Part shown: positions 3,984-55,600 of the stretch, piece after piece
Layout of the letters: each line of letters starts with the position of its first letter
How positions within the stretch are numbered: the stretch's first letter is position 1
The notes under the pieces: generated by a model
The model's database searches: none
What the model was told of the DNA's origin: nothing
What the model saw: the letters and a program-made list of their open reading frames with translations, nothing else
Virus record (IMG/VR): IMGVR_UViG_2811995368_000001
Span: 1-64,000 of that record
Source of the DNA: a virus
Lineage: Duplodnaviria; Caudoviricetes
Length of the DNA: 64,000 nt
Strand: one strand, 5' to 3'
Made by a program: the position numbers and the translations under genes

Positions 3984-4295
3984 TCACTCCTTGGGGTTGG
4001 GTTGATGTTGTGGCGCGGTGCGCGCGCCGTTCTTCAGTTCGGCAATCAGGCGCCGCACGCCACGCTTTTGCTTGGACGTGCCGCGCTCGATCCAGAGGCC
4101 GGTGCCGGGCCAAAAATCGACCGTGCGCCCGTTCGCGGTCACGATGAGGTGCGCGCCCTCGTTCTTCGTCTCGAAGGCGATGCCGGCAGCGGTGAGCATC
4201 TTGGCCGACGATTCGCGGTTGCTCGCCCGCTTTTGCCGGCTTTCCTCCTGCATGGCGGGGCGCACGTCGCGCCAGTAGTCGCCCATGTCACCCAT
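3984..4295 (-). CDS. Phage hypothetical protein
   Basis: MGDMGDYWRD...NEGAHLIV...VDFWPGTGLW; GGAGG RBS. Confidence 0.7.
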   Translation of the reverse strand: MGDMGDYWRDVRPAMQEESRQKRASNRESSAKMLTAAGIAFETKNEGAHLIVTANGRTVDFWPGTGLWIERGTSKQKRGVRRLIAELKNGARTAPQHQPNPKE

Positions 4296-4593
4296 GACAC
4301 ACCTCCTGCTCGGTGCGGGATTCGTCCAGGCGCAAGCGCGATTCAGCCACGGGGAACCAATGGCAGTCCCAGTCCAGCAGATAGCGCGCGCCATTGGCGT
4401 ACATGCCATCCGGCGAAGCCGGGCGCTCATAGAGGCCGGTCACGCGCAGGGCAAATTCGATTCCCGCCGGGTTCGTGTAGATCACTGGGTCGTCGGCCTT
4501 GAACTGCAAGGGTTGGCCGTTCTCCGGGGCGAAGGGCTTTTGGGCGTCGTGCCGGGCGGTGGCTTCTTCGGCCCATTCGTGGTGACTGCTCAT
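4288..4593 (-). CDS. Phage hypothetical protein
   Basis: Coupled ORF with GGGAGG RBS. Confidence 0.6.
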   Translation of the reverse strand: MSSHHEWAEEATARHDAQKPFAPENGQPLQFKADDPVIYTNPAGIEFALRVTGLYERPASPDGMYANGARYLLDWDCHWFPVAESRLRLDESRTEQEVCHG

Positions 4594-4607
4594 GGTCGGC
4601 AGCCTCC

Positions 4608-5141
4608 CTACAGGCTCTTCAGGATGGATTGGAGCTGCTTCAGCTTTTCAAGGCTCTGGGCATTTCCTTCCTGTTCCTGTTCGATGGTGAGCGCAGCTTC
4701 CTCGACCTGGGCCGCCAGTTGCTTCAAGCGCGTGCTGAAGTCGTCGGCAAGGGCCGCAATCTGACTAGACAGGTTGCCCAGGATTTCGAGAGGCGACTTG
4801 CTCGCCGGCGTGGCGCTGACGGATGCTGCTGGCTGGACGATTTGGGGCGCCACGGCGGCTTTTTGCATGGTGATGACTTCCTTCTTCGGGGTTGGCTGGG
4901 GCGTTCTGACGGCATGGCGCTGAAAGCAGCCAGGCTCTGGTTCGCGGACAAGGCCGATTTCGCGCAACGTCGCCAAGCATCCGCGCACGGTATGCAGGTC
5001 GGCGTTGCTGCGTTCGACTTCCTTCAGGGAGTGCCGGATTTGGCTCGCGGGCCAGGCTTCCTTGATGGGAACGACCTCGAAGACCTTACGCGCCAGCGCC
5101 GTTTGCCCCTGAAGGATTTTTTGGAGCTTGCCGGGTGTCAT
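4608..5141 (-). CDS. Putative winged-helix / coiled-coil protein
   Basis: N-terminal wHTH-like segment (CLATLREIGLVREPEPG), C-terminal coiled coil. Confidence 0.6.
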   Translation of the reverse strand: MTPGKLQKILQGQTALARKVFEVVPIKEAWPASQIRHSLKEVERSNADLHTVRGCLATLREIGLVREPEPGCFQRHAVRTPQPTPKKEVITMQKAAVAPQIVQPAASVSATPASKSPLEILGNLSSQIAALADDFSTRLKQLAAQVEEAALTIEQEQEGNAQSLEKLKQLQSILKSL

Positions 5142-11702: not shown

Positions 11703-13352
11703 CTATGCGGCCATGCTGTCAGCGATGCGCTGGCTGGCGGCTTCGAGGTCGATTTCGAGCAGCCAGGACACCACGACGGATTCATGGACACGGAAGTGCA
11801 GCGCCAGCGCGTCGATGATTTCGTCATCGCTGGGGCGGCTCTTGCTGGTGGGCGCCTGGCTGGCGCGGGATACCGACGGCGTGGCGGAAGGCCGGGCCGT
11901 GGTGGCGGGTTTGGTTGTGGCCTGGGGTGCCGGGTCGGCCAGCGGAATGGCGGGCGTGGCGGCCTGCTGTTCGGCGCGCAGCTTCGCTTCAGCTTCGGCC
12001 TTCGCCTTGGCCTCTTCCTCCTGCCGGATACGCGCGCGCTCCGCTTCCAGACGGTCGGCCTCGGCCTTCTTGTGCGCGTCGATTCGCGCCGTTACCGCCA
12101 GCTTGAAGTCGTCGAACGGCTTGGCCGCGAGCTGTTGCAGGTCGGCCAGCAGCGCGCGGTGCTCGGCAGCATTCACGTCCAGCCAGCCCAGCTTCGTGCG
12201 GATGTCGGCGGCCTGCTGGTCGGCAGCTATCTTGCCGTTCGCCAGCGCGGTGTCGAGCTTGTCCTGCATACTTTCCAGTGTCTTCAGGCCCTTGATGGCG
12301 CCCGCGAAGTCCGGGGTGGCAACGTCCATCCGCACGCCGGCAATCTCGCGCTGAAGGTCGGCGACGTGCGTGACGAAAGCCTTGCGGGCCGTCTCCACTT
12401 TCTCCGCGCGCCGGCGCGTCTTCTCGCTTTCCAGCAGCTTCTCGGCCATGAGGCGGTTGTCGCGCGTCAGCTTGTAGAGCATGTCTTTCTGGCGCTTCGC
12501 TTCATCGACGCTCTGGATTTGCGCCAGCATCATCGTCTCGGCGGAGTTCAGCGCGTCTTCCGCCTTCTTCAGCGCCTTGATCTGGGCGTCGAGGTCGATG
12601 AAGTCCTTGTCGGTCTGCGGTTCGCGGATGAGGCGGTTTTCGAGGAAATGCCGCAAGGCCGCCTCGAATACCTGGAAGTTGCTCTGAACCGCGATTTCGC
12701 CGCTGATCTGCACCGCCACCGCCGGCAGCGCCTGCACGGCATCGGCCACGATGACGGGCTTGGCCTCGGGCAGCACGTAGTCGGCCAGGTCGCGGTCGAA
12801 CTGCGCCCAGCCCGCCTCGATGCGGACGAACCAGGCGGGATCCGGCAGGACTTCGACATGCACGCAGTTATCGGGCGTGCCGTCGGATACGGTGAAGATG
12901 ACGCGCTTGGCGCCCGTCACCAGCATGATTTGCTGGCACTGGGGCATGTGCTCGTCGGGTAGCACGCCGGCGGCGACAGACGCGGCCAGCTCGGCGGCCC
13001 ATTGCTTGTGCTCGAAGGCCGTGTCGTAGCCCATCGTCAGGCCGTCGCACGACGCGGAGAGGATGCCGCCGGTGTCCTCGTTGGAGCACGTCACCGGGTA
13101 CAGGTCTTCGCCGATCAGGTCTTCGATGATGGGGCGCGCCATCGCTTCGACTTCGTGGCCGTAGTCGAGGATGTTCACCTGCACCCAGTCGCTGAATTCC
13201 TTGGGCGTGCCGGTGTGTTTCATGCGCAGCAGTTCGGAGCGCGTCGTTTTCTTCGACAAGCCCAGCATCGCCGCCGCCTCGCTGGCGCCGTGGTGGGTCA
13301 GGCGGAAGGCTTGCCACTCGGGGCTGCCTTGCTGAAGGTCATGGATTTTCAT
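11703..13352 (-). CDS. YqaJ-like viral recombinase exonuclease
   Basis: QGSPEW...ASEAAAMLG...GHEVE...SASCDG...EHK...QCQQIMLV; long coiled-coil C terminus. Confidence 0.92.
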   Translation of the reverse strand: MKIHDLQQGSPEWQAFRLTHHGASEAAAMLGLSKKTTRSELLRMKHTGTPKEFSDWVQVNILDYGHEVEAMARPIIEDLIGEDLYPVTCSNEDTGGILSASCDGLTMGYDTAFEHKQWAAELAASVAAGVLPDEHMPQCQQIMLVTGAKRVIFTVSDGTPDNCVHVEVLPDPAWFVRIEAGWAQFDRDLADYVLPEAKPVIVADAVQALPAVAVQISGEIAVQSNFQVFEAALRHFLENRLIREPQTDKDFIDLDAQIKALKKAEDALNSAETMMLAQIQSVDEAKRQKDMLYKLTRDNRLMAEKLLESEKTRRRAEKVETARKAFVTHVADLQREIAGVRMDVATPDFAGAIKGLKTLESMQDKLDTALANGKIAADQQAADIRTKLGWLDVNAAEHRALLADLQQLAAKPFDDFKLAVTARIDAHKKAEADRLEAERARIRQEEEAKAKAEAEAKLRAEQQAATPAIPLADPAPQATTKPATTARPSATPSVSRASQAPTSKSRPSDDEIIDALALHFRVHESVVVSWLLEIDLEAASQRIADSMAA

Positions 13353-14446
13353 TCTTGAGCACCCCCGGCGCTGGCCCAGCCCGCAATCTCCATCTTCATG
13401 TCGGGCGTGAGCAGTTCTTTGGTTTCGATCATGGCGATGAGGTCATTCACCGGCTTGCCGGCTTCGACCTGCTTCTTCCAGCCCGCCGACTTCTTGGCGA
13501 AGTTTTCGGCGCTGCACGTCGGCAACGTCTTCCCGCCGCCCGTGCCCGCGCCGCCGGTGTTTCCGGTGCCCGCGCCAGCACTCTTTCCGGCCTGCTCGGC
13601 TTTGTTCTCCATGACGCTCTTCCACGAGGATTCCCCGTCACGGATGGCGCCGTAGATGCCGCGCAGATTGACCAGCTCGGCAGGCGAGCAGGTGTCCAGC
13701 GTGTGGCCCAGGTATTCGGTCAGGTCGGCAGCCTTGACGCCGATTTCGCCGAAGGCATCGGCGATGCGCTTGCGCTCGGTGTCCGGGTCGCGCGCCGCTT
13801 CGTCGAGGCGGATTGCCTTGATGATGGATTCGGCCTCGTCCTGCATGTCGCCGGGGATGATGCGCAGGCCCAAGGTGCGGATGGCCTTGGAGATTTGCGC
13901 GGCGCGCTTGTTCAGCAGGTCATCGTCGGTGGCGGGCACCGTATAGACGTTGCGGTTGTAGCTGTTCTTGCGCACGCTGATGTAGGTGCCATCGTCGGCG
14001 GGCTTCGAGCGTTCGACGGTCTTGGTCACGCGCACGTCGAGCGGATAGGTCAGGTTGGATTCCAGGTCGGTCACGCTGACGCGGTGGATTTCCTTGCTCT
14101 CGTCCTCGAAGATCATGGTGGTTTCCACCAGGACGTTCGTCATGCAGCGTAGGGCGACTTCGACGAAGCGGATGCCCAGACCTTCCACGCCGTCGCCGAT
14201 GGGCTTGCGGTAGTAGGCGCTCTTGTTATGCGCGAAGCTGGGGCGCTTGCATTCCTTCAGCAGGTCTTGGCGAACCTGATCCCAGTTGCGCGGACGGCGC
14301 AGCGCCATCACGTAGCGGGCTTCGACGACGGCCTTGGCCTGTGCGGCCACGTAGGCGGACGCGGTTTCGGTGGTAGCGAGCGTGACGGCAGAGCCGCCGA
14401 ACTCTTGGCGGGCAGCGAGCGCGCCGCCCTGTTGCATGTCGTTCAT
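13349..14446 (-). CDS. Putative single-strand annealing recombinase (partner of YqaJ)
   Basis: ATGA-coupled upstream of the exonuclease; PRNW...AYYRKP...EGLGIRFVE...KAIRTLGLRIIPGD. Confidence 0.65.
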   Translation of the reverse strand: MNDMQQGGALAARQEFGGSAVTLATTETASAYVAAQAKAVVEARYVMALRRPRNWDQVRQDLLKECKRPSFAHNKSAYYRKPIGDGVEGLGIRFVEVALRCMTNVLVETTMIFEDESKEIHRVSVTDLESNLTYPLDVRVTKTVERSKPADDGTYISVRKNSYNRNVYTVPATDDDLLNKRAAQISKAIRTLGLRIIPGDMQDEAESIIKAIRLDEAARDPDTERKRIADAFGEIGVKAADLTEYLGHTLDTCSPAELVNLRGIYGAIRDGESSWKSVMENKAEQAGKSAGAGTGNTGGAGTGGGKTLPTCSAENFAKKSAGWKKQVEAGKPVNDLIAMIETKELLTPDMKMEIAGWASAGGAQE

Positions 14447-14477
14447 GGTTTCTCCTTGATGATGGGATGGGCGGCGG

Positions 14478-14576
14478 TTACAGCGTCACCTTGGCGAGGC
14501 GCCAGGACTTGCGGATGCCGTACCCGCGTTTGAGGTAGTAGTGAAAATCGGCCAGCAGTTTCAGCGTCTTCTTCAT
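14478..14576 (-). CDS. Small basic peptide (32 aa)
   Basis: MKKTLKLLADFHYYLKRGYGIRKSWRLAKVTL; GGAG RBS and ATGA coupling. Confidence 0.5.
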   Translation of the reverse strand: MKKTLKLLADFHYYLKRGYGIRKSWRLAKVTL

Positions 14577-14770
14577 CGGGCCGGCTCCACGCTGATTTTG
14601 GAAATGCCGAACCGTTCGAGCGCGTCGATGGCGGCGTCGCAGGTGCTGGCGAAGAGCGCGGCGTAGCGGAAGCGTGCGCCGGTGGTCGTCGTCACCTTGA
14701 CCTGGCACTTGATGAGCGGCTTGGGGCGTGCGAAGTCGCCCGCCAAGGCCGCAGCCTGCGGTGTGCTCAT
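14573..14770 (-). CDS. Small hypothetical protein
   Basis: AAAGGGA RBS; ends in ATGA overlap. Confidence 0.5.
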   Translation of the reverse strand: MSTPQAAALAGDFARPKPLIKCQVKVTTTTGARFRYAALFASTCDAAIDALERFGISKISVEPAR

Positions 14771-14781
14771 GGCTATCCCTT

Positions 14782-15348
14782 TCAGATGGTTCCGAACGGA
14801 TGCAGGCACCGCTTGGCGTCGATGTACGCCTGCTGGGCCTGCAATGGGTCGGAGAAATGGCCCAGGAATTGACGCTCCCGGTTCAGCGTGATGTGGGCGC
14901 GGAATGTGCCTTCGCGCCGGCCTTGGCTGACGCCTATCAGGCCGGTGCTGCTATGCCGCGCTGCGCGGCGGCGGTTCTGCTGGTTCTCGGTATTCGAGAG
15001 TTCGCGCAGGTTGCCGATGCGGTTGTCGTCGCGCCTGCCGTTGATGTGATCGACCAGCTTTTCCGGCCAGACCCCATACATGTAGAGCCACGCGAGACGG
15101 TGCGCGTTGTAGTCCTTGCCCGCGATGCGAATGCGGACGTAGCCGTTGCGCCGCGTGCCGGCGGGTTTGCCGGCGGGAGCGCGGTTCGACTGGGGAACAC
15201 GCCAGGTGAAGACGCCGGTGTAGGGGTCATAGTGCAGAAGGAGCCGGAGCACTTCCGCCGTGATCGCCGGAGTGCCAGTTTCCGCGCCGCGAAAAAACCG
15301 GGCGGCCTGCTCGGCAGGCTCGCCCGGATACATGACACATGCCGACAT
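14782..15348 (-). CDS. HNH homing endonuclease with C-terminal AP2-like domain (start uncertain)
   Basis: LLHYDPYTGVFTW...AHRLAWLYMYG...VDHINGRRDDNRIGNLR...GVS...LGHF...AY. Confidence 0.9.
   Translation of the reverse strand: MSACVMYPGEPAEQAARFFRGAETGTPAITAEVLRLLLHYDPYTGVFTWRVPQSNRAPAGKPAGTRRNGYVRIRIAGKDYNAHRLAWLYMYGVWPEKLVDHINGRRDDNRIGNLRELSNTENQQNRRRAARHSSTGLIGVSQGRREGTFRAHITLNRERQFLGHFSDPLQAQQAYIDAKRCLHPFGTI
15292..15327 (-). terminator. GC-rich hairpin plus T6 behind the CLec gene (terminator and/or DGR target hairpin)
   Basis: Minus strand CCGGGCG-A-GCCTGC-CGA-GCAGGC-CGCCCGG-TTTTTT. Confidence 0.7.
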
Positions 15349-15354
15349 GACCCA

Positions 15355-16329
15355 TTACACCTTTGCGAGGCGACCGCCGATACTCGCGTTGACGTCCGAC
15401 GCGGGATTATTGACATTGAGGCAGAACAACCCATCGTTCGCCCCGTTCGCCCAATGGCCGCCGTGGTAGGCGACGCCGCCAGACCAGAACCACGAGTAGT
15501 TGCCGTAGGCCGCGTCCTCTTGCTCGTCGCGGGTCTTCTTCGGCACGAACACCGCGCCCAGGTCGAAGCCCTCGCCGACGTTGCGCAGGCGCTTGTGGAT
15601 CCAGCCATGCTCCGGCGCTTCGATGCTGGTGTTGAGCAGGTTGCGGTGGCCGTCCTTGCCCCAGATGAGGAACTCGCGGTTCGCGCTGGTCTGCAAGCCG
15701 TCCAGCATCTGCCAGACGTTACCCCAGAGGCCCGTGATGCCACGGTAGGCGGCCTGCACCACCTCGGCGTCATCGACCTTGCGCACGCCGTTTCCGTCGG
15801 TGTAGCCCTCGCCCAGAATGGACTTGACGTTGGGCGTGCCGCACTCGATCAGGGCCAGCGCCTGGATGGCCGCGAGCTGGTAGATGCTCCACAACATCCA
15901 GCCATCGCCGCGCGCGGCGGCGCGCGCCTGCATGGTGGGGAAGTCGATGCGCGCCAGCGGCATCAGGCCGGCTTGCGAACCCAGCTTGTCGTCGCCGTCC
16001 GGCGTGCCCTGGTACTTGCCCAGCCAGTATTGCGCGAGGTCGGCGCCGTGGTTGCGGAAGGCCGGATGCAGCGCGTAGCCTTCGGCGGGTTCGTCGCTCA
16101 CCCAGAGCGCCTTCTTGCCCAGCAGCGGGCCGTCGCGCACGATGTCGGAGCGGTAGTAGAAGGCCGGCACACGCACCATGCTCTGGCCGTCGATGTCCTC
16201 GTCGGCGATGCCGGCGAAAGTCGGGTGGTTGCTGAAGAAGCTGGCGTCCGGGTCGATGATGGCGCCGCTGTTGTCGATGCGCGTCCAGGGCGCGTGCTTC
16301 TTGCCGAAGACGATGCCGATTTGGCTCAT
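15355..16329 (-). CDS. C-type lectin-fold (FGE/Mtd-like) protein ending in a DGR-type variable region
   Basis: MVRVPAFYY, LHPAF, GKYQG, YRGITGLWGNVWQMLDG and C-terminal GGHWANGANDGLFCLNVNNPASDVNASIGGRLAKV; AAGGA RBS. Confidence 0.8.
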   Translation of the reverse strand: MSQIGIVFGKKHAPWTRIDNSGAIIDPDASFFSNHPTFAGIADEDIDGQSMVRVPAFYYRSDIVRDGPLLGKKALWVSDEPAEGYALHPAFRNHGADLAQYWLGKYQGTPDGDDKLGSQAGLMPLARIDFPTMQARAAARGDGWMLWSIYQLAAIQALALIECGTPNVKSILGEGYTDGNGVRKVDDAEVVQAAYRGITGLWGNVWQMLDGLQTSANREFLIWGKDGHRNLLNTSIEAPEHGWIHKRLRNVGEGFDLGAVFVPKKTRDEQEDAAYGNYSWFWSGGVAYHGGHWANGANDGLFCLNVNNPASDVNASIGGRLAKV

Positions 16330-16574
16330 GTTGATGTCCTTTGCGTTGATGGGGGTGCTTGATGGGCGGTGATGGGTTCCGGCTTTCACCATGTCCGGCA
16401 TGGGCCTGTGCGCGTTCAGGCTCGCGTCCTACTCGCTGCGTCTGGCTGCGCACGACCGCCGGGGCAGTCCCATACCAGCATCCGCTTTCGTTCCGGTTTC
16501 CACGACCTCCGGCTGGTCGAATAGACATGCGCCCGGTTTGATTCCCAGTCCAGCCTGTCAGTGGGGTCGGAAGG

Positions 16575-16650
16575 TGGTAGCGGCGGCTGGAATCGAACCA
16601 GCGACCTCCGGGTTATGAACCCGGCGAGCTTCCAACTGCTCTACGCCGCA
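16575..16650 (-). tRNA. tRNA-fMet (CAT), initiator type, CCA encoded
   Basis: TGCGGCG TA GAGC AGTTGGAA GCTC G CCGGG TTCATAA CCCGG AGGTC GCTGG TTCGATT CCAGC CGCCGCT A CCA; 1:72 mismatch, A11-U24, three G-C pairs in the anticodon stem. Confidence 0.95.
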
Positions 16651-16656
16651 ATTCGG

Positions 16657-16920
16657 TCAATCGAGGCCGGTTTCGGGCGGCGCGGTGCGCACGATGCGCG
16701 CCGCTTCCTCGAAGGCTTTGGCGAGCTGCTCCCGGCGCGCCGGCGACTTGGGCAGCCAGAACGTCACGGCGCTGCGGTCATCGTCCTGCGGCGGGTGGTG
16801 CAGCCGTTCGCTGCTGTGCAAGATGAACTGAACGGCGTGATACGTGACGCCGGTGTTGCTCGGCTTCTCCACCCGCAACACCTCATCGGTCAGCTCTTGG
16901 CTGTAGATGTTGATGCGCAT
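16657..16920 (-). CDS. Phage hypothetical protein
   Basis: TAAGGA RBS; MRINIYSQELT...DDDRSAVTFW. Confidence 0.65.
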   Translation of the reverse strand: MRINIYSQELTDEVLRVEKPSNTGVTYHAVQFILHSSERLHHPPQDDDRSAVTFWLPKSPARREQLAKAFEEAARIVRTAPPETGLD

Positions 16921-16924
16921 GTCC

Positions 16925-17212
16925 TTACCCCTGCACGGCGCAGTGGAAGTGCCCGGTGAAGGCGTAGCGGAAGTGCGCCCGTGCGCTGGTGTTGCCGATA
17001 GTGCGCTGGCGGAAGGTGCGGTCGTCATACTGGCCGCCCTTCGCCATCCAGCCGAAGGCGATGCCAAGATGCAGCACGCGATCACGCCAGCCGCGTCCGC
17101 TGCCGCTCCGACGGAAGCCGCCAAGGATCCCCGGCGGGGTGGGGCCATCGACGGCCCAGCCAGTGCCGGCCAGGGCTATGCGACGGAAGAAGCGTTCGAT
17201 GCGTTTCATCAT
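16925..17212 (-). CDS. Hypothetical basic protein
   Basis: GGAG RBS; fills the gap between the structured leader and the next gene. Confidence 0.45.
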   Translation of the reverse strand: MMKRIERFFRRIALAGTGWAVDGPTPPGILGGFRRSGSGRGWRDRVLHLGIAFGWMAKGGQYDDRTFRQRTIGNTSARAHFRYAFTGHFHCAVQG

Positions 17213-17535
17213 GGTGGCGATGCTCCGGTGGTTGATGAGGTTGATGGCGGTCGGGCTACCTGCACCATTTGCAAGCGCGCTTTTCTCGCCCGTGTGTGCG
17301 GGGTCGTCGAGGCTCGTCCGCCGCCTGCCCGTCCTCACGGGTAGGGGATTCGGTCATGCGACCGCCATCAAGGGGCACCCCGGAGACAGGCTCCAACTGG
17401 CCTCGGGTGGGTACTTCGCTCTGGGTTGGTCGTCACTGGATTTGCCCAGGGTGCCTATTGATGGCCCCGGCCTTTCACCGGGCTGCGACTGTTGGCGTCG
17501 TCCCTCCGCCTATCGCGCGGCGGCGCAGGCGTGGA

Positions 17536-17832
17536 TTACGCGGCGGCGGCCTCGGTGCTCTCGGGCGGCTCGGCCACGCGCAGGTAGGGATGCTTCTCGG
17601 TTTCCTTCTTGATGTGCTGGCTGAAGTGCGTACCCAGCGATTCGGCGCTGTCGAAGGTGGCGAAGTCTTCGGGGGTGAAGTTGCCGTAGTGGTACAGCGC
17701 GCCGTGGCTGCCGTCGGCACGCTTGAAGCGGATGGCGAGGGTGTTGGTTTCGGCGTTGTGGCCGATCTCGGCGATGCGCGAGGATTCGACCGCCTTCATG
17801 GCGATGGGACTGGCGTCAATTTGCGTGGTCAT
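17536..17832 (-). CDS. KTSC domain protein
   Basis: VESSRIAEIGHNAETNTLAIRF...LYHY...F..AESLGTHFSQHIK KTSC signature. Confidence 0.88.
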   Translation of the reverse strand: MTTQIDASPIAMKAVESSRIAEIGHNAETNTLAIRFKRADGSHGALYHYGNFTPEDFATFDSAESLGTHFSQHIKKETEKHPYLRVAEPPESTEAAAA

Positions 17833-17862
17833 GGTGGGCCTTTCGGTTGTGGTTGAGGGAAG

Positions 17863-18250
17863 CATCAGCACCGGCGACTGGGTGCAATCGGCGGTGGTGA
17901 TGGCCCTGTTGCCAGGGCATCACTCCGGCCAGACGCTGGGCCTGGCCGGTTGCGGCATTGATGCGACGTAGTGCGCGCGCCGCGCCCCTGCTATGCCCGC
18001 TGTCACGGGCGTCTCGCCCCGACTTCGCGGGGCCTGGTGCAGGTGGCTTTACTTCTGCCCGTCGTTACCTGCGCCACGGACGGGTGGGCGTTCGCAGTTC
18101 GCAAATGGCGAACAAGCGAACCGAACCTATGGTTTCAACGCAGCCCCACGGGCCACTCCCCCAGGGAGATTCGGGTTTCGCGCACTTTTGCTTCTGCCGT
18201 GCGCGCCACGGGGCAGGAGGTTGTCGCCGCCCGCTTTCGCAGGGGCCTCG
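17863..18250 (-). ncRNA. Highly structured PL leader RNA (hairpins and two pseudoknot-like repeats)
   Basis: About 480 nt from PL to the first gene without a convincing ORF; many complementary segments (see findings). Confidence 0.5.
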
Positions 18251-18325: not shown

Positions 18326-18368
18326 ATCTTAGGCGACGCCTAACGATGTGTCAATAGGCAAAGCCTAA
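18326..18368 (-). promoter_or_regulatory. PL promoter with operators OL1 (18329-18343) and OL2 (18354-18368)
   Basis: TTGACA-17-TAAGAT; palindromes TTAGGCGACGCCTAA and ATAGGCAAAGCCTAA. Confidence 0.9.
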
Positions 18369-18378
18369 GATTTTTGAC

Positions 18379-18408
18379 AAAACAAAACCCGGCCATGTGG
18401 CCGGGCTT
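18379..18408 (-). terminator. Terminator of the cI operon
   Basis: Minus strand GCCCGGCC-ACAT-GGCCGGGT-TTTGTTTT. Confidence 0.8.
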
Positions 18409-19191: not shown

Positions 19192-19650
19192 TTAAGCCGC
19201 GTTCTTGGTCTTTTTTCTCTCGTGTAGCAGCTTGGCGGCACTGGCTTTCCATACGTTCAGTATGCCGTGCGCCGTGGCATCAAGCCAAGGCGGGACTTTG
19301 CCCACCCCAAGAATCGCATCCACGATTGCCCTGGTGGCGTCATCCGCACGCTCGTAGGCATCCCATACTGACGGTTGTTCGCTGGTCGAATCAGGGGTGG
19401 ACGCGCTACCGCTGTCCGCCGGCAATTCCTTCAGGCCCCAGTGTTCCGGCCCGACGACATCCGAGAAATAGCGCCACAACTCCGGCAGCTTTTCCTTCGA
19501 GATCGTCCCCCGTTTTTTCCAATCGGCAAGGGACGGCTGCTTCACGCCGAAGTGGCGAGCGACTTCCACTTCGCGGCTGATCGCTCCCGAAGCCTTTTTT
19601 AGTTTTATGGCCTGGGCAATAGCCTGGCCTAGTTCTTTCCCATTAAGCAT
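19192..19650 (-). CDS. CI-like repressor (HTH, no S24 peptidase domain)
   Basis: EVARHFGVKQPSLADWKKRGTISK HTH; divergent from cro across the operators. Confidence 0.85.
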   Translation of the reverse strand: MLNGKELGQAIAQAIKLKKASGAISREVEVARHFGVKQPSLADWKKRGTISKEKLPELWRYFSDVVGPEHWGLKELPADSGSASTPDSTSEQPSVWDAYERADDATRAIVDAILGVGKVPPWLDATAHGILNVWKASAAKLLHERKKTKNAA

Positions 19651-19721
19651 TGCCTAAGAATCCTCTACCGTGCATGTGTTAGGCAATTCCTATTGACATG
19701 AAATTAGGCGTCGCCTAAGAT
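19643..19721 (+). promoter_or_regulatory. PR promoter with operators OR3 (19643-19657), OR2 (19679-19693) and OR1 (19704-19718)
   Basis: TTGACA(19693)-17-TAAGAT(19716); TTAAGCATTGCCTAA, TTAGGCAATTCCTAT, TTAGGCGTCGCCTAA. Confidence 0.9.
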
Positions 19722-47334: not shown

Positions 47335-50300
47335 ATGACCAGTACGCCTCTGCACCTCATCGAGAGCGCGGCCCACGAGGGCGCTTTCGGCCAGAACCTG
47401 ACGCCCGAACCGTCGGCGGCCCAGTGCCGCGCTGGCAACTACAAGATGGGGCGGGTGGGCCTGCACGGGCTGAACCTTGTGATCGAGCAGCCGCGCGGGA
47501 GCACGCGCTCCGGCGTGGATGAAGCGACCGGCAAGGCATGGTCTAGCCGCATGGCGGCGCATTACGGGTACATCGGCGGCACGACCGGCGCGGACGGCGA
47601 TGGCGTGGATTGCTTCATCGGCCCCTACCCGGACGCCGAGCGGGCCTACGTCATCAACCAGAACGTCGGCGGGCAGTTCGACGAGCACAAGGTAATGCTC
47701 GCCTTCCCTGACCTGGCATCGGCGCGCAGCGCCTACTTGAACAGCTACGAACGCGGCTGGAACGGGCTGGAAAGCATCGTCCCGGCTTCTCTTTCTCAAC
47801 TCAAGTGGTGGCTGACACACGGCGACCTGAAGCGCCCGCTACGGGCCGACACCCTACCCAAGGAAGGACTTGAAACCATGAAGAAAACTCACTGGAACAC
47901 CGACGCGCAGCCCTACAACACCACTTTGGCCCAGGTGCTGTACGACATCCGGCGCTCCGACAGTGGCGAGGGCCTTCTTCTGGATGCCGTTACCGCCCAG
48001 GAAATCATCGACGACGCCGAGGGCGCGCTGGCCTTCGACGCGCTGGTGACGCCCTATGCCAAGCTGGAACGCCGGATGGAACTGCTGCGCGGCATCATGG
48101 AGCGCACCGGCGACAAGGTGAAGCCCGTCGCCCTGCAAATCACCGACCCGTTCAAGCAGCGCGGCGTCGCCAATGTGGCCGCCATCTTCGAGCTGTCCGA
48201 CGGCCAGACCGTGACCATTTTCTTCCACAACCCCGACGTGACGCCGAACAAGATGGCGCCGGCGGACGAGGTTATCTCGTGGAAGTGGTTGCTGAACAAG
48301 AAGGACATCACCATCGTCGTCGCGCCGGAGCGCGGCGCCGACCTGAACATCCGCGAGGTGGCGCGCCGCATCATGCGCCTGGCCGAGAAGAACAGCGAGG
48401 CGTTCCAGCGCGTGAATGCCACGCGCGCGACGCGGATGCAGAACATCCAGTCCCTGAAGGACGAGATCGCCGGACTGGAAAACGAGCTGGCGACCGCCCA
48501 GCATGAACTCGAAGTGGCGAAGGTGGCTGCCGAAGGCAAGCCGGAATTCGACCCGACCACGCCCGAAGGCTACGCCAAGGTGCGCGGCGACGAAGCCCTG
48601 CAACTCTACTGGCAAGACCGTCTCGACGCCTTCTTCCAGGGCCGCATTGTTGCCGTCCGCAACTCCCTGCGTGTTCTGGGCTGGGAAGGCCGCGAGCCGA
48701 ACGACACCCGCCTCTACAAGGAAGACGCCGAGGTGCAGCCGACCTTTACGCACGTCGGCGCAGGCCGCAACGTCGCCGGCTGGGCCATGAACGGCATCGA
48801 CGACGACCTGACCAAAACCCCGGAAGAGTACGCCGCCCAAGTGGATGCGGCGGCGATGGCCGAGGTTGCGCGCCGCGCGCAAGCCGCGAAGGGTGCGCAG
48901 CAGAAGACCGACATCACCTATCGCAACAGCGCCGACGGCCTCTTCACGTCGTTCTTCCCGAATACGCCGGAAGGCGAAAAGGCGTGGAACATCATCAATG
49001 CCACGCCGGGCGCCGAGGGCGGCAAGGTGCTGGCTGCCCATGCCGAGCCGACCATTGCGCAACTGCGCGAGGCCGGCTACACCGTGGCCGATGACACCAG
49101 CGCGCCGATGACGCCCGAAGAGGAAGCAGCCCTGCTGAAGGAGCTTGGCGGGGATGCGGCCGCCGCCCAGCCGAAGAAGTCGGCTCCGTGGTGGGAAGGT
49201 TCCGTGGGCGAGAAGTACGCTGCCGTGTATCTGCTGGGAAAATCTCGCGGCAACGACTATCTGACCATGACCGAACAGGGCGGGGCCTACTTGGCGCACG
49301 TCAAGGACGGCAATCTTGGCCGTGAGAAGGTGGGCACTCCCGCCGACATCGTGGAATGGTTGCGTGCCGATGTATTTGTCGGGATGGGCGACGCCTTCGC
49401 CGGAAAGTCGCTGACCGTGGATGATGTGCGCGCAAAACTCAAGCTGGTCAAGGGTGAAGACATCCTGTTCAGCAATGCCGCCAAGCAACCTGCCGAACAG
49501 GAGCTGATCGCCGCCTATTCCCGTTCCTTCAGCGAGGCTGCTGCCGTGCTCAATGCTGCCGTGGCGGCGGTGAACTGGGACGGCATCACCGATACCGCCA
49601 CCATGCGCGCGGAACTCGATAAGCTGAACGTCGCCTCGCGCACCGGCCAGCACGACATCATCGGCAAGGCTTCCAGTGCCCTCGAAGCCATCGGCATCAA
49701 GACGTGGGACGAGCGCCTTTCCAGCCTGCGCGGCGAGGCCGGATTCATCGCGTGGCGCGACGCGCTGGACGCCTCGCGCGCGGCCTTCGACAAGATTCAG
49801 GCCGTCGCCAAGGAACGCCTGATCGCCAAGGGCACGGCGGAAGTCGCTGCGCTGACCGCCGAAAGCCCGCTCGCCGACGTGGCCGCCGCTATCTTCCACA
49901 AGGCGGGCATCGACACCGGCACCCAGACCCCGCAAATCGTCGCCGCCATCGAGGCCAAGGACGCCGCGCTGGCGTGGAGCATCCTGCGCAACCTCGACAA
50001 CAAGGCCAGTGCGGAGATTTTCGAGCGCGCCACCGGCGTCAAGCTGGCGAAGACCCAGCGCGACCGCCGCCCGCAGATCGACGCCTGGGCCGGTATCACG
50101 CCGGAACAGCGCGCGGAACTCGAAGCGCAGCGCACCGAAGCGCAGGCCGCCAAGGAACGCGACGAAAACCTGAAGCGCGCCTGGAACGGGCTGACCTCCA
50201 TCAGCGTGCGCGCCAGCGACGGCAACGTGAGCAACGGCCAGGACTTCCTGAAGTCGCTCTTCGCCAAGGGATTCGACGAAGTGGTGGTGCGCAAGCGCGG

Positions 50301-52677
50301 TGCCGTGCCCACGTACTACATGCGCAACGCCGAAAGCCAAATCACCGGCGTCAAGAGCAAGAACTTTAACGGCTTCTTGAAGGCTGCTCTGACCCTTGGC
50401 GGCCTGCGCCAGGCACTGGAATCCCTGGGCGTGATCGAGGTGCAGGCCGAGAAGACTGACGCCGAGAAAATCGCCGCCGTCGATGACGCCTACCGCTTCA
50501 CCAGTGCCACCGACGAATTCAAGCTATGGCTGGCTGAATCCGTGCTCAAGGACGACTATTCGCCCTTCCTGACCGCGAAGGGCATGGACGAGGCCGCCAA
50601 GCGCCACGGCGCTGAAATCGAGTGGGGCGAGTTCGCCGGCGCCGCGATGGATTCTGTCCATACCATCGCCGGTGAGCAATTTGACGGCGGCGAGTTCGAC
50701 ACGCTGCGCGCCATGAAGGAGAACCCCAAGATCGAGGACGGCGACGTGCCGTCCAAGGCGTCCCGCGATTCGCTGGTGGAGCGCGGCTACGTCGAACGCC
50801 GTGACGGCTACAACTGGCTGACGAACAAGGGCCGGGATCTTGTCGCGGCTCTCGACGACGTGGGCCATGCCGTCGCTACCCTGCAACAGGCGCTGGACGT
50901 GGCCCAGACCAATGAACCCATCAACCGTGCCGAGGGCAACACCGAGCAAGCCGACCTCGAAGCCGAGGTGGCGGCCAGTATCAAGGAAGCCATCGCCATC
51001 CTGACCGAGGGCGACTACGAGCCGGACGAAGCCGAAACCGGCATCACGTTCGACGTGGAAACGGCCCTGGACAGTGCCGCCGCTTTCGAGGCCGAAACCG
51101 AGGCGCGCGGCGTGGCTGCCACCAAGGCCCTGCTCAACGGCTTCAGCGCCTTCTTGGCATCGGATGCGAAGTTCTCCCCGCTGCTGGACAGCGTGCGCGA
51201 GATTGCCACCTTCGACAGCGCGCTCACGCCGCTGCGCTCCATGATGTCCTGCCGCGCCTCGCTTTCCGGCGTGGAAATGACGCAGGATGAAGCGGAGCGC
51301 ATGGATGCCTTCGCCAACGATGCTCGCGCCATCAGCGACCGCCTGACCGGGCGCGCCGGCGCGAACCCCGAGAAAAATCCTGCGCTGGATGGTGTGGATG
51401 ACGACGGCTACGTGGGCAAGGTCAAGAAGGGCGACCAGGTGCTGGGCCGCATCGACATCGGCGACGACGGCAAGGCGATGGTGTATGTCGGCGAAGCCGG
51501 CGACGAGCGCGTGAAGGGTAGCGAAGGCCGCCCGTTCATGTATTCCGAGGATGACGCCCCGGAAATGGTGGAAGCCCTGTTCGCCGCCGAGGAATCGCCC
51601 GCTGCGCAATCTGCCGCCTTCGTCGGCCCGGCGAAAGACCGCATGGCCGCGCTCAAGGTGCTGACCGATACCGGCATGAACCGCTGGATGTCGGAGTCCC
51701 AAAACAAGGCCGTCATCGCCGGATTGATGGGCGAGGAATGGCAGTTCTTCGCGGACAAGATGAAGGAGTTGGCCGGCGTCATCGCCACCATGCCGAAGAC
51801 CTACGACCAGGACGGCAAGGGGGATGAGGCCGTAGCGCACCTGCACTACTTCCGTGGCGCTGGCGACTGGTACATCACCGAGAAGGACATGGAAGGTCAC
51901 GGCACCGAGCAAGCCTTCGGCCTGGCCGACCTGTACGGCGACGGCGGCGAGCTGGGCTACATCAGCATCATCGAACTTGCGGAGGCCGGCGTGGAACTGG
52001 ACTTTCACTTCAAGCCCAAGACCATCGGGCAAATCCGTGGCGGCGCGTCCGGCGCCAGCGAAGAGCAACAGCAGGAACCCGGCGGCGGCAACCCGGATGC
52101 GACGCCTGCTGCTGCCGCGCCGGCCAGCGAGGCCGACCAATCCCTGCGCGCCTTCGCTGCCGCCACCAACAGCGAACTCTACGACCCGGACTACAGCGGC
52201 GGCCAGTGGATGATCGAAGCGGTGGAGACGCAGGAAACCATCGCCGACTTCGTGGCCGCATCCGCCAGCTACCAGGAAGCGACCGCGCCCAAGTTCGGCC
52301 AGATCGCCGGTTTCAAGTTCGTTGCCTTCTCGAAGGTGCAGGCGCGCAAGGGCGACCAGCGCCGCGAGCTGTCCGTTATCGACTTCGGCTTCGCGCGCTT
52401 TGCCCTCAATGCCGACCTGACCAACTTCGACTACCAGGCGTGGGACGGCACCTATCCCGACCAGACGGCAGCGGCAGACCAGAAGACGGTTGATCGCGCC
52501 CTGTTCCAGTCCGTCATCGACGGCACCGCTCCCGACATCCTCGCGCCCGACCTGGCTGATTCCCTGGAAGCCGCTTTCAATCGCAACCAGGGCGACCCGG
52601 ACATGGTGAATCTGTTTGAACTGGCCGTCGGCGCTTACCAGAACGCCATGCTGGCCGCCACCGCGAACCTCTCCTGA
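47335..52677 (+). CDS. darA: DarA-like polyvalent antirestriction protein (InPase domain + DarA-N + several modules + DUF2958/DarA-C-like domain)
   Basis: AGNYKMG...IEQPRGSTRSG...HYGYIGGTTGADGDGVDCF (InPase); LSDGQTVTIFFH...LLNKKDIT..VAP...LAEKNS.AFQR (DarA); LHYF...DWYITEKD...ELGYIS. Confidence 0.85.
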   Translation: MTSTPLHLIESAAHEGAFGQNLTPEPSAAQCRAGNYKMGRVGLHGLNLVIEQPRGSTRSGVDEATGKAWSSRMAAHYGYIGGTTGADGDGVDCFIGPYPDAERAYVINQNVGGQFDEHKVMLAFPDLASARSAYLNSYERGWNGLESIVPASLSQLKWWLTHGDLKRPLRADTLPKEGLETMKKTHWNTDAQPYNTTLAQVLYDIRRSDSGEGLLLDAVTAQEIIDDAEGALAFDALVTPYAKLERRMELLRGIMERTGDKVKPVALQITDPFKQRGVANVAAIFELSDGQTVTIFFHNPDVTPNKMAPADEVISWKWLLNKKDITIVVAPERGADLNIREVARRIMRLAEKNSEAFQRVNATRATRMQNIQSLKDEIAGLENELATAQHELEVAKVAAEGKPEFDPTTPEGYAKVRGDEALQLYWQDRLDAFFQGRIVAVRNSLRVLGWEGREPNDTRLYKEDAEVQPTFTHVGAGRNVAGWAMNGIDDDLTKTPEEYAAQVDAAAMAEVARRAQAAKGAQQKTDITYRNSADGLFTSFFPNTPEGEKAWNIINATPGAEGGKVLAAHAEPTIAQLREAGYTVADDTSAPMTPEEEAALLKELGGDAAAAQPKKSAPWWEGSVGEKYAAVYLLGKSRGNDYLTMTEQGGAYLAHVKDGNLGREKVGTPADIVEWLRADVFVGMGDAFAGKSLTVDDVRAKLKLVKGEDILFSNAAKQPAEQELIAAYSRSFSEAAAVLNAAVAAVNWDGITDTATMRAELDKLNVASRTGQHDIIGKASSALEAIGIKTWDERLSSLRGEAGFIAWRDALDASRAAFDKIQAVAKERLIAKGTAEVAALTAESPLADVAAAIFHKAGIDTGTQTPQIVAAIEAKDAALAWSILRNLDNKASAEIFERATGVKLAKTQRDRRPQIDAWAGITPEQRAELEAQRTEAQAAKERDENLKRAWNGLTSISVRASDGNVSNGQDFLKSLFAKGFDEVVVRKRGAVPTYYMRNAESQITGVKSKNFNGFLKAALTLGGLRQALESLGVIEVQAEKTDAEKIAAVDDAYRFTSATDEFKLWLAESVLKDDYSPFLTAKGMDEAAKRHGAEIEWGEFAGAAMDSVHTIAGEQFDGGEFDTLRAMKENPKIEDGDVPSKASRDSLVERGYVERRDGYNWLTNKGRDLVAALDDVGHAVATLQQALDVAQTNEPINRAEGNTEQADLEAEVAASIKEAIAILTEGDYEPDEAETGITFDVETALDSAAAFEAETEARGVAATKALLNGFSAFLASDAKFSPLLDSVREIATFDSALTPLRSMMSCRASLSGVEMTQDEAERMDAFANDARAISDRLTGRAGANPEKNPALDGVDDDGYVGKVKKGDQVLGRIDIGDDGKAMVYVGEAGDERVKGSEGRPFMYSEDDAPEMVEALFAAEESPAAQSAAFVGPAKDRMAALKVLTDTGMNRWMSESQNKAVIAGLMGEEWQFFADKMKELAGVIATMPKTYDQDGKGDEAVAHLHYFRGAGDWYITEKDMEGHGTEQAFGLADLYGDGGELGYISIIELAEAGVELDFHFKPKTIGQIRGGASGASEEQQQEPGGGNPDATPAAAAPASEADQSLRAFAAATNSELYDPDYSGGQWMIEAVETQETIADFVAASASYQEATAPKFGQIAGFKFVAFSKVQARKGDQRRELSVIDFGFARFALNADLTNFDYQAWDGTYPDQTAAADQKTVDRALFQSVIDGTAPDILAPDLADSLEAAFNRNQGDPDMVNLFELAVGAYQNAMLAATANLS

Positions 52678-52690
52678 AGGGAAGAAAGAC

Positions 52691-55600
52691 ATGCTGAACC
52701 GTATCGCCTTCGATAGCGCCGTGGGAAGCGGCGGCGTGCTGGCACGGCTGAAACTGGTGGGCGAACTGGCCCGCGTCAAGGCGGAACTGAAGGGGGCAAA
52801 CGGTGCGCTCGCGCGCCTGAAGCTGTCCGCGCGCGCGAACCAGATCCGCGCCGAGCTGGGGGCAATGCAAACGGCCACGGGGGGCGCCGCCGAAGGTGAG
52901 CAGCCCGCCGCGCCGGATGCCACCGCTGGCGATGATGCTCCGTCCGCACCGCGCAACCAGACGGCCCAGTATTACGAGTTCGACCCGAACCGCAAGCCCG
53001 CCCAGCGCAAGAAGGACAACACCGAGGCGATGGCTCTGCTTCGTCGCATCGACGCTGGCGAGGTGGATTCGGCGCGCCTGACGCCGGAAGAAAAGCTGGC
53101 GCTGGCGAAGTATTCCGGCACGGGCGGCGCGCTCATCGGCGCCGACGGCAAGAAGGGCAGCGCCTACGAGTATTACACCCCCAAGCCCATCGCCGAGGGC
53201 GTCTGGGAGTTGATGGGCGAGCTGGGCTTCTCCGGCGGCAAGGTGCTCGACCCGTGCGCCGGTGTTGGCGTCTTCGGTGCGACCGCACCCCTGTCCGCCG
53301 CCATCGACGCGGTGGAGCTGAACGAAACGTCGGGCCGCATCAACGGCCTGGTCAATGCCGGCCCTGGCTACACCGCAACGGTTTCCCCGTTCGAGAAGGT
53401 GGCCGCCGCAACCCCGGACGAGCAATACGACGCTGTGGTGACGAACGTCCCGTTCGGCGGCGTAGCCGACCGTGGCGGGAATCAACTGCTGGACAGCCGC
53501 TACCAGAAGGAACCGCTGCAAAATTACTTCATCCTGCGCTCGCTCGAAAAGCTGAAGCCGGGCGGCCTGGCCGTGTTCATCACGCCGCCGCGCTGCGTCT
53601 CCGGCAAGGGCGGAAAGGAAGAAGAGCTGCGCGTGAAGGCCAGCTACGTCGCCGAATTCCTGGGCGCCTACCGGCTCCCCAATTCCGTGTTTGGAACGGC
53701 CAGCGCGGACACCATGACGGACGTGATCGCGTTCCGCAAATACAGCCGCGACACCCTGGACAAAATCGCCGAACTGCGCGAGCAGTCGCCCAAGGTGCTG
53801 ATCGAGGCGAACGTGCAATGGCAGCCCTTCATCGACGGGCGCTACTTCGACGGCGAGGGCAAGCGGTTCGTGCTGGGCGAGTTCGTGCCCAAAGACCCGA
53901 CCAAGTTCCGCGACGTAGATCGCGTCATCACCAAGGCCCCCATCGGTGAAATCGGGCGGATGCTCAAACGCTTCCCTGATTCCCGTGTGAATTGGGACAT
54001 GCTGGGCGCGTCCGAAACCACGCCCATCATCTACCGCGACGGCGACACCATCACCCAGGCCGGGCAGACCCTGCAAATGCAGGATGGCCGCTGGGTGCCG
54101 CTGGCGCGTGGTGAGGACAGCGCAAGCATGGCCGACCTCGTGGGCAAGATGAAAGACCCCTACGCCGCCTTCGAGGCCGGCGCCACCTGGCCGGATGCTG
54201 AAAAGTGCGTCGATTACATGGTGGAAACCTCGCAGTCGCTGGACATTCCGGACTGGCTGCGCGGAGCGATGGCCGAAATTCGCCGCCTGAAGGCCGCCGA
54301 CCAGCGCGCCCAGTTCTGGAACGCTGGCATCGTCGGCATGGCCGCCGCGCAGGTGCTGCAAGAGCGCCTTGGCGAGGAAACCGGCGTCAATTTCCTGGCC
54401 GAATATCCTGCCCTGTCCGACGCCATGCAGCGCGTCGCCGGCGTCGCCAAGAAGCGCCCGTCGGCGCTGGGCGGCAAGCTGCGCGACGGCTTGCTGACCA
54501 TCGGCAACCACTACCAGAAGAAGACCGGATTTTCGGCGGTCTGGCGCGGCGACGTGCAGCAGCAGGCCCCGAGCGTCGAATCCACGGCGGATTCCACCTT
54601 CGAGGGCTTGCGCTACAAGACGAAATCCATCTGGGCGAGCCTGGAAGACACCAGGGCCATCTACGGCGAAGGATTCGACCCGCACGCGGATCCCGCGTGG
54701 TGCCTGTCGCCCGACGGAAAGAGCGTCACGCGCGCGGACGACTACTACGTGGGCAACTACGCCGAGTTCTTGGCGCGCGTGGATGCCGACATCGCCGGCG
54801 CGGCCAGCGACGACATCCGAGCCAAGCTGCTGCGCCAGAAGATGGACGCCGCCGCCCGCATCGACAAGGTGGATGTGTCGAAGCTGACCTTCAACCTGTT
54901 CAGCCCGCACGTCTCCCTGGAAGAGAAGGCCGACTTCCTGCGCCGTTTCGTCCATCCGTCTGCCGCTGTCATCTACGACGAGCGCACGGGCGAGAAGCGC
55001 GTGGACATCGACGTGCCCGGAAGCAACCTGACCGACCGCGAAAAGCTGCTGAACCGCATCGGCGACTACCTGAAGAACGGCACGATCACCCTGGGCGGCG
55101 TCAAGCTGGGGATGGACGATGCCAAGGCCCTGCATGAGCTGCGCCGGATGGTGAATACTGCCAACGAGCAGTTCAACGGCTGGGTGCGCGGCAACCGCGC
55201 CATCGTGGCGCGTCTGGAAGCCATCGCATCCGACCCGGCGAAGCTGCGTTTCCGCCAGGTGGAGGACGAGGCGCCGATGCCGATTCCCGGCATGAACCCC
55301 GACCTCACCCTGCACGGCTACCAGAACGCCTACGTGCGCAAGACCAGCCGCGAGTTCGGCGGCATCAACGGCTTCGGCGTGGGTCTGGGCAAGACCTTCA
55401 CGGCGCTGGCGGCCACCCAGTACGCCCAGAGCATCGGCGTCAAGTCGAAAACCGCCTTCGTGGTGCCCAACTCCGTGCTGTCCAACTGGCGCAAGGAGGC
55501 CGCGCGCGCCTACGCCAACACCGACGACTGCCTGTTCATCGGCCTGCGCGTCGGAAAGGACGGCAAGGCAACCGTGAGTTCGTCGAATTTCGACACCGAC

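Follow-up and report, generated by a model that had tools for sequence, protein, structure and literature searches.

Targeted hypermutation by the diversity-generating retroelements (DGRs) of phages is understood almost entirely as switching of tail-fibre tropism. BPP-1 has one target, Mtd, which is located on the fibre tips and is encoded beside the cassette in the late region. Distant targets in prophages have been recorded and left unexplained. As far as the portions of these papers available to us go, Wu et al. 2018 (PMC5758913) describe many DGRs of phages that have, within about 50 kb, a non-adjacent target in addition to an adjacent one, and two phage-associated DGRs whose sole target is non-adjacent, about 20 kb away; the Bacuni phages (phage F1) have a distant and an adjacent target (PMC8143477), targets called 'large and small' are found in the Faecalibacterium phages Lelie and CP11 (PMC11792537), and Roux et al. 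2021 (PMC8144416) note that remote targets escape detection in their metagenome survey. Here we describe a short gene encoding a variable lectin-like domain in a stretch of 64,000 nucleotides (the window), which comprises bases 1-64000 of the IMG/VR provirus record IMGVR_UViG_2811995368_000001 (75,893 bases, CheckV completeness 86%). The gene, at 15358-16329 on the minus strand, is very probably a true second target of the DGR of this prophage, inverted and not adjacent to the cassette.

The preliminary description of the window had treated the gene as an orphan target, had found no cassette within the 64 kb and had suspected one beyond it, near the tail fibre. The last two points were borne out. 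When the VR2 region (15340-15560, around the variable repeat of the short gene) was used as query against the whole record, two further copies were found, both in the opposite orientation, at 70821-70952 (90%) and 72314-72425 (94%), and the sole RVT_1 match of the record, at 72791-73399, also lies outside the window. The record beyond the window carries, at 68.4-73.6 kb, a complete, canonical DGR consisting of a long target, bAvd, a template repeat (TR) and a reverse transcriptase (RT). The term 'orphan' was wrong, because the cognate TR and RT (72.3-73.6 kb) lie in the same record and thus in the same prophage. The components are, in record coordinates:

15358-16329, minus strand: probable short DGR target gene, 324 aa, an open reading frame (ORF) with its stop codon at 15355-15357
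15362-15471, minus strand: VR2, the variable repeat (VR) in the final 37 codons of the short gene, from comparison with the TR
15358-15378, minus strand: 3' end of VR2 resembling an initiation of mutagenic homing sequence (IMH), GGCGGTCGCCTCGCAAAGGTG, the same in VR1
15298-15327, minus strand: GC-rich hairpin of 13 pairs, starting 27 nt after the stop codon, with T6 at 15292-15297
68378-70942, plus strand: long target, fibre-like, 854 aa
70826-70935, plus strand: VR1, the variable repeat of the long target
71833-72279, plus strand: bAvd (PF22296, 84.8 bits against a cut-off of 40)
72307-72416, plus strand: TR
72578-73642, plus strand: RT, 354 aa (RVT_1, 87.5-89 bits), with YMDD and LTSQ readable

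The YMDD and LTSQ motifs are what we take to be marks of DGR RTs. A DGR-type RT is therefore present in the same replicon as the short target, with the accessory protein bAvd beside the TR, and cassette and short target are 57 kb apart in the same record.

The TR was compared with both VRs in an ungapped register over 104 nt, which contain 26 TR adenines. All five differences between VR2 and TR fall on TR adenines (hypergeometric P 7e-4), as do all twelve between VR1 and TR (P 6e-9), and the 12 differences between VR1 and VR2 are likewise all at TR-adenine positions. A copy of VR2 that differs at template adenines only and lies beside an RT, which the preliminary description had expected elsewhere in the genome, is thus present. 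When 6 nt were added at the 5' edge, five of seven VR2 differences were at adenines; the extra two are T-to-C changes common to VR1 and VR2 and are read as a fuzzy 5' edge. At the other end, both VRs finish with ...CGCAAAGGTG-TAA and the TR with ...CGCAAACGAC-TAA, so that ...AAAGGTG in VR1 and VR2 stands against ...AAACGAC in the TR. By sequence this is the arrangement of IMH versus IMH*, and the VR form of the IMH was kept in 34 of 34 aligned VR ends of relatives. In DNA, the short and the long gene are 67% identical in the part before the VR and 87% identical across the block of VR, IMH, spacer and hairpin; a TR-like VR block in a gene whose remainder has drifted strongly is the pattern predicted by repeated retrohoming.

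The likeness of VR2, VR1 and TR might instead come from ordinary recombination or gene conversion between repeats, since three copies with 104-180 nt of high identity are found on one replicon that also encodes a RecE-type module. Such exchange, however, would not limit the differences to TR adenines (5/5, 12/12 and 12/12), a restriction that was repeated in four other records, and the polarity of the 3' ends, with the TR form retained in the TR and the other form in both VRs, is that expected of IMH-directed transfer. We therefore regard gene conversion as a very improbable source of the likeness. If retrohoming proceeds as in BPP-1, TR RNA would be copied to cDNA by the RT together with bAvd, with misincorporation opposite adenines, and the cDNA would replace VR2, guided by the IMH and the hairpin and independently of VR1. 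The coding capacity of the TR, with 10 AAY codons and 4 codons with a single adenine, would by our own arithmetic allow about 10^11-10^14 protein variants.

The hairpin, already noticed from the window as a GC hairpin about 27 nt after the stop codon, lies at 15327-15298 on the coding strand. Folded as DNA, the VR2 hairpin reaches -20 kcal/mol with z -4.05, and none of 200 shuffles was as good; the z value of -4.05 applies to both copies (VR1 and VR2). A spacer of about 30 nt is common to both VRs and is followed by the hairpin, the inner stem of which carries compensatory changes between the VR1 and VR2 hairpins (GCCTGC/GCAGGC versus GCGCGC/GCGCGC). Across 34 VR ends, 86% of the cells were paired and two-sided changes were seen in 9 of 11 pairs, a result matched by 0 of 500 shuffles, whereas slid controls gave 38-50%. 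The pairs were counted on the single-sequence fold, because the RNAalifold consensus of the VR ends recovered 4 hairpin pairs only, plus a helix within the IMH; the count is biased towards this reference structure, with slid controls far lower.

The gene was then compared with its relatives. Among deposited phages no close relatives were found: megablast of 14000-18000 gave four records, each at most 9% covered, and tblastn gave six records with 24-28% identity. The IMG/VR scan revealed 62 loci, including 12 complete short forms (322-388 aa, 59-93% identity) and one cut by a contig end; most of the remaining loci were long forms of about 840-868 aa. The scan of species-representative genomes gave 41 loci, 19 of them short forms. 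Among the hosts are Castellaniella, Xylophilus, Bordetella hinzii, Comamonas, Pigmentiphaga and Burkholderia, and further Gulbenkiania, Azonexus, Pseudothauera, Pseudomonas and a metagenome-assembled genome (MAG) of Porticoccaceae. An RT ortholog was present in 6 of the 10 short-form IMG/VR records searched, the four without being 21-73% complete; this search left out L011, L015 and L041, each of which has short and long forms. In the isolate genomes, an RT ortholog was found in five of five tested. Contigs of L014/L030 and others stop at the VR, as expected from assemblies breaking at repeats.

In the relatives, too, differences between VR and TR were concentrated at adenines. The short VR compared with its own TR gave 13/13 differences at adenines in G001, 10/11 in G002, 19/20 in G005 and 14/14 in G007, and the long VR gave 14/15, 8/9, 11/13 and 14/14 in the same order. 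In isolate genomes the adenine share between short VR and neighbouring TR was 20/24, 8/11, 12/16, 12/16 and 14/17; the compared spans include the 5' edge and in two of the five also the IMH end, which accounts for most of the non-adenine differences. Altogether, of the 10 further genomes or records that have a TR, 9 show differences of the short VR from the TR mainly at adenines. Between VR1 and VR2 there are 9-15 differences in every one of five records, and by this comparison the short VR has been rewritten independently of the VR of the fibre tip in all five. Two other uses of a second VR were considered. A decoy matched to the receptor of the fibre is disfavoured, because VR1 and VR2 differ in all five of five records; a spare cassette for recombination with the fibre gene would require exchange between inverted copies (VR1/VR2), which would invert 55 kb.

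Several relatives have tandem DGR RTs (G003 at L079, G004 at L080, G012 at L127/L132, G013 at L133), the two types being 43-46% identical. In these relatives the first RT has its own TR/VR pair on an adjacent target. The second RT is orthologous to that of our record, and the TR next to it has no other copy within the 15-18 kb examined. In G013 this TR matches the remote short target, with 12 of 16 differences at adenines. From these sequences, the second RT and TR look like a DGR dedicated to the short target, decayed in some lineages. Three further observations concern individual relatives. G007, a linear contig of 75 kb, carries the long-target VR at both ends (L082 near 10988, minus strand; L083 near 25, minus strand), and the two end copies differ at three places, each of which, judged by eye, is a TR adenine; the contig is suggestive of a circularly permuted assembly, the ends of which sample two VR1 variants of one population. 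L098, from a Burkholderiaceae MAG, has two short-type copies with VR ends, at 1-534 and 4001-4957, about 3.4 kb apart on one strand, which look like tandem small targets. In L096, from a Castellaniella MAG (near 4001-4976), the short-form frame is 64 aa from the first ATG, with the tblastn match starting at 4062; either a broken gene or an indel in the assembly may account for this.

The contrast between VR and gene body was clearest among near-identical relatives. Compared with L007, L084 and L085 (93-94% protein identity), the window has 28-30 differences over the 858 nt upstream of the VR, 23-28 over the 110 nt of the VR and 2-4 over the 104 nt downstream, a seven-fold excess in the VR. The ratio of nonsynonymous to synonymous substitutions (dN/dS) outside the VR is 0.16-0.20. 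By these measures the body of the short gene is under purifying selection, and the VR differs among near-identical relatives.

Variation was also seen in public sequencing runs, which were compared as assembled contigs; the counts of differences are lower bounds. The stretch or a part of it was present in 20 runs from 12 studies, mostly of wastewater and also of mine drainage, landfill, soil and freshwater. Contigs spanning the short gene came from three DNA runs of three studies and differed from the window at at least 26 places in the 110-nt VR2 versus at least 9 in the other 858 nt. Among the 26 listed VR2 places, 15 are TR adenines, at 8 the contigs have the same letter as the TR of G001 type, and the other 3 belong to neither group. 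In run X8 one contig has the exact TR end of the record, and the contig of this run that carries the gene has five listed differences in VR2, each at a TR adenine. Judged from these sequences, the VR varies at TR adenines between samples and between relatives. In X5 and X8 contigs break at the edge of IMH and VR, as is usual for assemblies at repeats. The metatranscriptome run X15, whose contigs cover parts of the HNH gene and of the target's 5' half with depth accumulating at the IMH/VR, was left unused, as neither transcription nor its strand or level can be read from contigs and related DGRs contribute to the depth.

Some of these findings weigh against the short gene being an active target. 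In VR2, 5 of the 26 TR adenines are changed, versus 12 in VR1 and 10-19 in the short VRs of relatives, so that VR2 may have been rewritten rarely or recently. In G003/G012 (G012 is Comamonas) the match between the short VR and the TR next to the orthologous RT is poor, with 9 of 20 differences at adenines, and in G004, in which the orthologous RT frame is short, no TR matching the short VR was found within 63000-75113 of the record; as far as these sequences tell, the link between TR and short VR has decayed or been lost in two lineages. The contig variation in VR2 is variation between populations, which does not prove activity within one. The same findings would fit a relic, that is, a duplicated fibre tip and former target that is now a passive copy in this prophage, the more so as variation of VR2 was examined in assembled contigs only. 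Against a relic stand the intact IMH and hairpin, of the same kind as those of VR1, the intact ORF with dN/dS of about 0.2, and the placement of all VR2-TR differences at adenines. Moreover, genes 93-94% identical from three other sources have quite different VRs, and in the metagenome contig set with the same TR the five listed VR2 differences were all at TR adenines. We consider a relic improbable and retain the reading of the short gene as a second target of the DGR.

The start of the short protein at 16329 (MSQIG) is backed by relatives, in which the start has the same position in the alignment, and AAGGA lies 7 nt 5' of it; a longer frame extends to 16401. From the first ATG, the ORF has 322-328 aa in 10 of the 12 complete short-form loci, L007 having 348 and L015 388 aa. 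The C-terminal variable-region pattern of C-type lectins (CLec) that had been recognised in the window is present (...AYHGGHWANGANDGLFCLNVNNPASDVNASIGGRLAKV), and the T-ending codons of the VR were rightly called atypical, with 7 of 38 codons in the VR versus 11 of 286 in the remainder of the gene (Fisher p 0.002). Over its full length the short protein can be aligned with residues 530-854 of the long target (49% identity, E 2e-108), and its match to phrog_5302 'tail protein' (E 2.8e-36) covers only profile positions 227-541 of 548. It thus has neither the tail-joining N-terminal part of phrog_5302 nor the first 529 fibre residues of the long target, in line with the earlier remark that no virion anchor was obvious. 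Pfam gave no family at E 0.01, and the N terminus (MSQIGIVFGKKHAPW...) shows no signal-like stretch, as judged by eye.

The AlphaFold2 model of the short protein, built on 28 relatives, has a pLDDT of 91 and a pTM of 0.92. The best Foldseek match in the PDB is TaqVP (5vf4, E 1.3e-14, TMq 0.56), followed by PvdO, Mtd (E 2e-4 to 1.5e-3), EgtB-IV and TvpA (2y3c, E 3e-3), FGE chains being weaker. According to the model, the protein is the variable domain of C-type-lectin fold alone, with the VR at its C terminus and the 529 fibre residues absent. Compared with the fibre tips it is richer in charged residues (K+R 9.2% versus 6.2%, D+E 13.0% versus 7.8%), and two charged motifs, W[FIL][HR][KR]R and one like TR[DE][DE]R[DE][DE]S, were found in 12 of 12 short rows and in none of 16 long rows. 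A maximum-likelihood tree was calculated from the domain minus its last 40 residues, with duplicates, rows cut by contig ends and L096 excluded. The 26 short rows form one clade (support 100/100) on a stem of 0.61, nested among 37 long-form rows.

The layout around the short target is lambda-like. The features of the surroundings are:

11703-13352, minus strand: RecE-like exonuclease (YqaJ PF09588; phrog_7655, E 2.7e-163)
13349-14446, minus strand: phrog_3657 protein (E 6.5e-61)
14782-15348, minus strand: HNH endonuclease gene, AP2-type (PF13392, E 3.8e-15; phrog_99, E 1.6e-58)
16575-16650, minus strand: tRNA-Met gene (ARAGORN), 245 nt upstream of the short target
18326-18354, minus strand: promoter-like site TTGACA-17-TAAGAT heading the leftward arm, from a consensus scan only
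18385-18408, minus strand: terminator-like hairpin just before the leftward promoter-like site
19192-19650, leftward: small protein of 152 aa with a weak DNA-binding PHROG match (E 2.6e-4)
19693-19721, plus strand: rightward promoter-like site
71020-71601, plus strand: small ORF matching phrog_2618 (E 1.4e-31, a family without assigned function); L006 9020-9601
71618-71926, plus strand: small ORF without family, overlapping the bAvd frame; L006 9618-9926
73631-74923, minus strand: tyrosine integrase
75156-75893, minus strand: open frame running off the end of the record, possibly flanking host DNA

Leftward from 18354 follow genes for a KTSC protein and a phrog_20753 protein, tRNA-Met, the short target, HNH and a 78-aa protein (p78), and further leftward the phrog_3657 protein, the RecE-like exonuclease, and nucleotide-metabolism and methyltransferase genes; the order of phrog_3657 and RecE is kept in relatives. 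Rightward, a CII-like activator and a methyltransferase are followed by replication genes of DnaD/O-like and DnaC-like type and then by the structural genes, which extend as far as the long target. Both of the divergent promoter-like sites read TTGACA-17-TAAGAT, with the same hexamers and spacing, and between them lie three leftward genes (152, 143 and 73 aa) placed as cI-rex is in lambda. The structural arm also contains two very long ORFs, at 47335-52677 (plus strand, 1780 aa) and 52616-59134 (plus strand, 2172 aa), upstream of baseplate-like genes and the long DGR target. We infer the early placement of the short target, and its PL-like promoter, from position in this layout. The expression from PL that had been proposed is consistent with the layout and with the promoter-like site at 18354-18326 (minus strand); the support consists of consensus scan and position only.

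The neighbourhood was surveyed in 32 short-form loci (13 from IMG/VR and 19 from species genomes), some of which are the same prophage counted twice. In 13 of them the short gene, p78, phrog_3657 and RecE follow in order on one strand, three have RecE upstream on the same strand (L100 being a copy or close relative of the phage of L012), and in 16 the neighbours were unrecognisable with the proteins of the window. Within the flanks examined, the short gene lay beside a long target or RT in none of the 32 loci. The HNH gene adjoins the short gene only in G000, L007, L084 and L085, whereas in other relatives the short gene is followed by the p78 homolog; it looks like a lineage-specific insertion just after the hairpin, possibly a homing-endonuclease insertion. 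Its annotated start overlaps the VR2 hairpin. Judging from the sequence, the hairpin with T6 looks terminator-like in this lineage, which puts in question the true start of HNH or read-through by antitermination.

Where the short protein acts was weighed on this evidence. We lean slightly towards a soluble hypervariable binder that would be expressed from the leftward early arm and would act away from the virion. This is favoured because the protein has no fibre part and, by eye, no signal-like N terminus; because its location in the early arm is conserved, with the immunity region on one side and the recombination genes on the other; because the short clade sits on a long stem branch; and because the protein carries more charge than the fibre tips, together with the two charged motifs exclusive to short forms. 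On the other side, the case is made from position, domain content and composition only, and Mtd of BPP-1 is itself small and docks on fibres, so that small size alone is no bar to a virion role.

The short protein could thus also be a virion component, a second, separately encoded receptor-binding tip docking on the tail or the long fibre much as the small Mtd does, which we regard as a serious though less likely alternative. It would imply two independently diversified specificities and a gene in an unusual place. In its favour, the fibre tip and the short protein are paralogs, the PHROG matched by the latter is annotated 'tail protein', and phages with two DGR targets, Bacuni (PMC8143477) and the Faecalibacterium phages with 'large and small' targets (PMC11792537), are read as two-adhesin phages in the portions of those papers at hand. 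Such a tip is, however, difficult to reconcile with the absence of every residue upstream of the CLec domain, with the co-orientation with RecE-type recombination genes, counted in 15 of 32 short-form loci (the neighbours of the other 17 being unrecognised), and the 0 of 32 loci beside a long target or RT in the flanks examined, and with the long stem (0.61) and the charged motifs absent from 16 of 16 long rows.

A more specific form of the off-virion role is put forward tentatively, as a minority expectation. Besides the tail fibre, the DGR would diversify a virion-independent, cytoplasmic, antibody-like binder, made early from the PL-like arm and directed against a variable intracellular partner. 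Host defence proteins or components of a competitor would be candidate partners. The preliminary description had likewise thought of a possible intracellular binder, as an anti-defence or host-takeover factor. The function would be valuable enough for retention as one clade across several bacterial families, and G003/G012 and G013 would devote a second RT, and a TR without adjacent target, to the short protein.

If the protein acts in the cell or as a free lectin, targeted hypermutation of phages serves more than adsorption; if it is a docking tip instead, this is an ordinary two-adhesin phage. The family offers a clean case in which the second target is a variable lectin domain minus the fibre, under purifying selection, in the early recombination arm. 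The short-target family is found in many prophages of Burkholderiales and of some other Pseudomonadota hosts, and cultured carriers, e.g. Castellaniella denitrificans CCUG 39541 with a short gene 94% identical, allow direct testing.

The two-target architecture is already known in phage DGRs, and because it has been published the short target is a further case and not a new type. In the text portions of the literature covered, which did not extend to supplementary tables (Table S1 of Wu et al. may list the family), there is no fibre-less lectin-domain target in a recombination arm; the same portions describe no function for such distant targets and no early, intracellular or anti-defence phage DGR target. 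As in the phage DGRs with an adjacent and a non-adjacent target, one TR serves both targets in the same (pro)phage; in the parts of those papers available, the distant target is not placed in an early or recombination arm and both targets are read as adhesins. The DGRs of Wu et al. (PMC5758913) with a distant target only resemble, as far as they are described there, the second DGR of G003/G013.

TaqVP of Thermus aquaticus (PDB 5vf4) is a DGR variable protein of about 380 residues that aligns with nearly the whole model of the short protein, although sequence identity is only 15-17%. Remote cellular targets such as TvpA of Treponema denticola have export signals in many cases. Like TvpA and other such targets, which the available text of PMC5758913 describes as lying far from the RT and using one common TR, the short target has a fold of CLec/FGE type. 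Unlike them, it lies within a phage genome, and its N terminus is not signal-like by eye. With the BPP-1 DGR (Brt, Avd, TR, Mtd) our record shares the set of RT, Avd and TR, the adenine-specific differences between TR and VR, a C-type-lectin fold with a C-terminal VR, a 3'-terminal IMH in the VR that is unlike the copy in the TR, and the GC-rich hairpin downstream. It differs from BPP-1 in having two targets, the short one 57 kb off, on the other strand, in the leftward early arm and devoid of a fibre-docking part.

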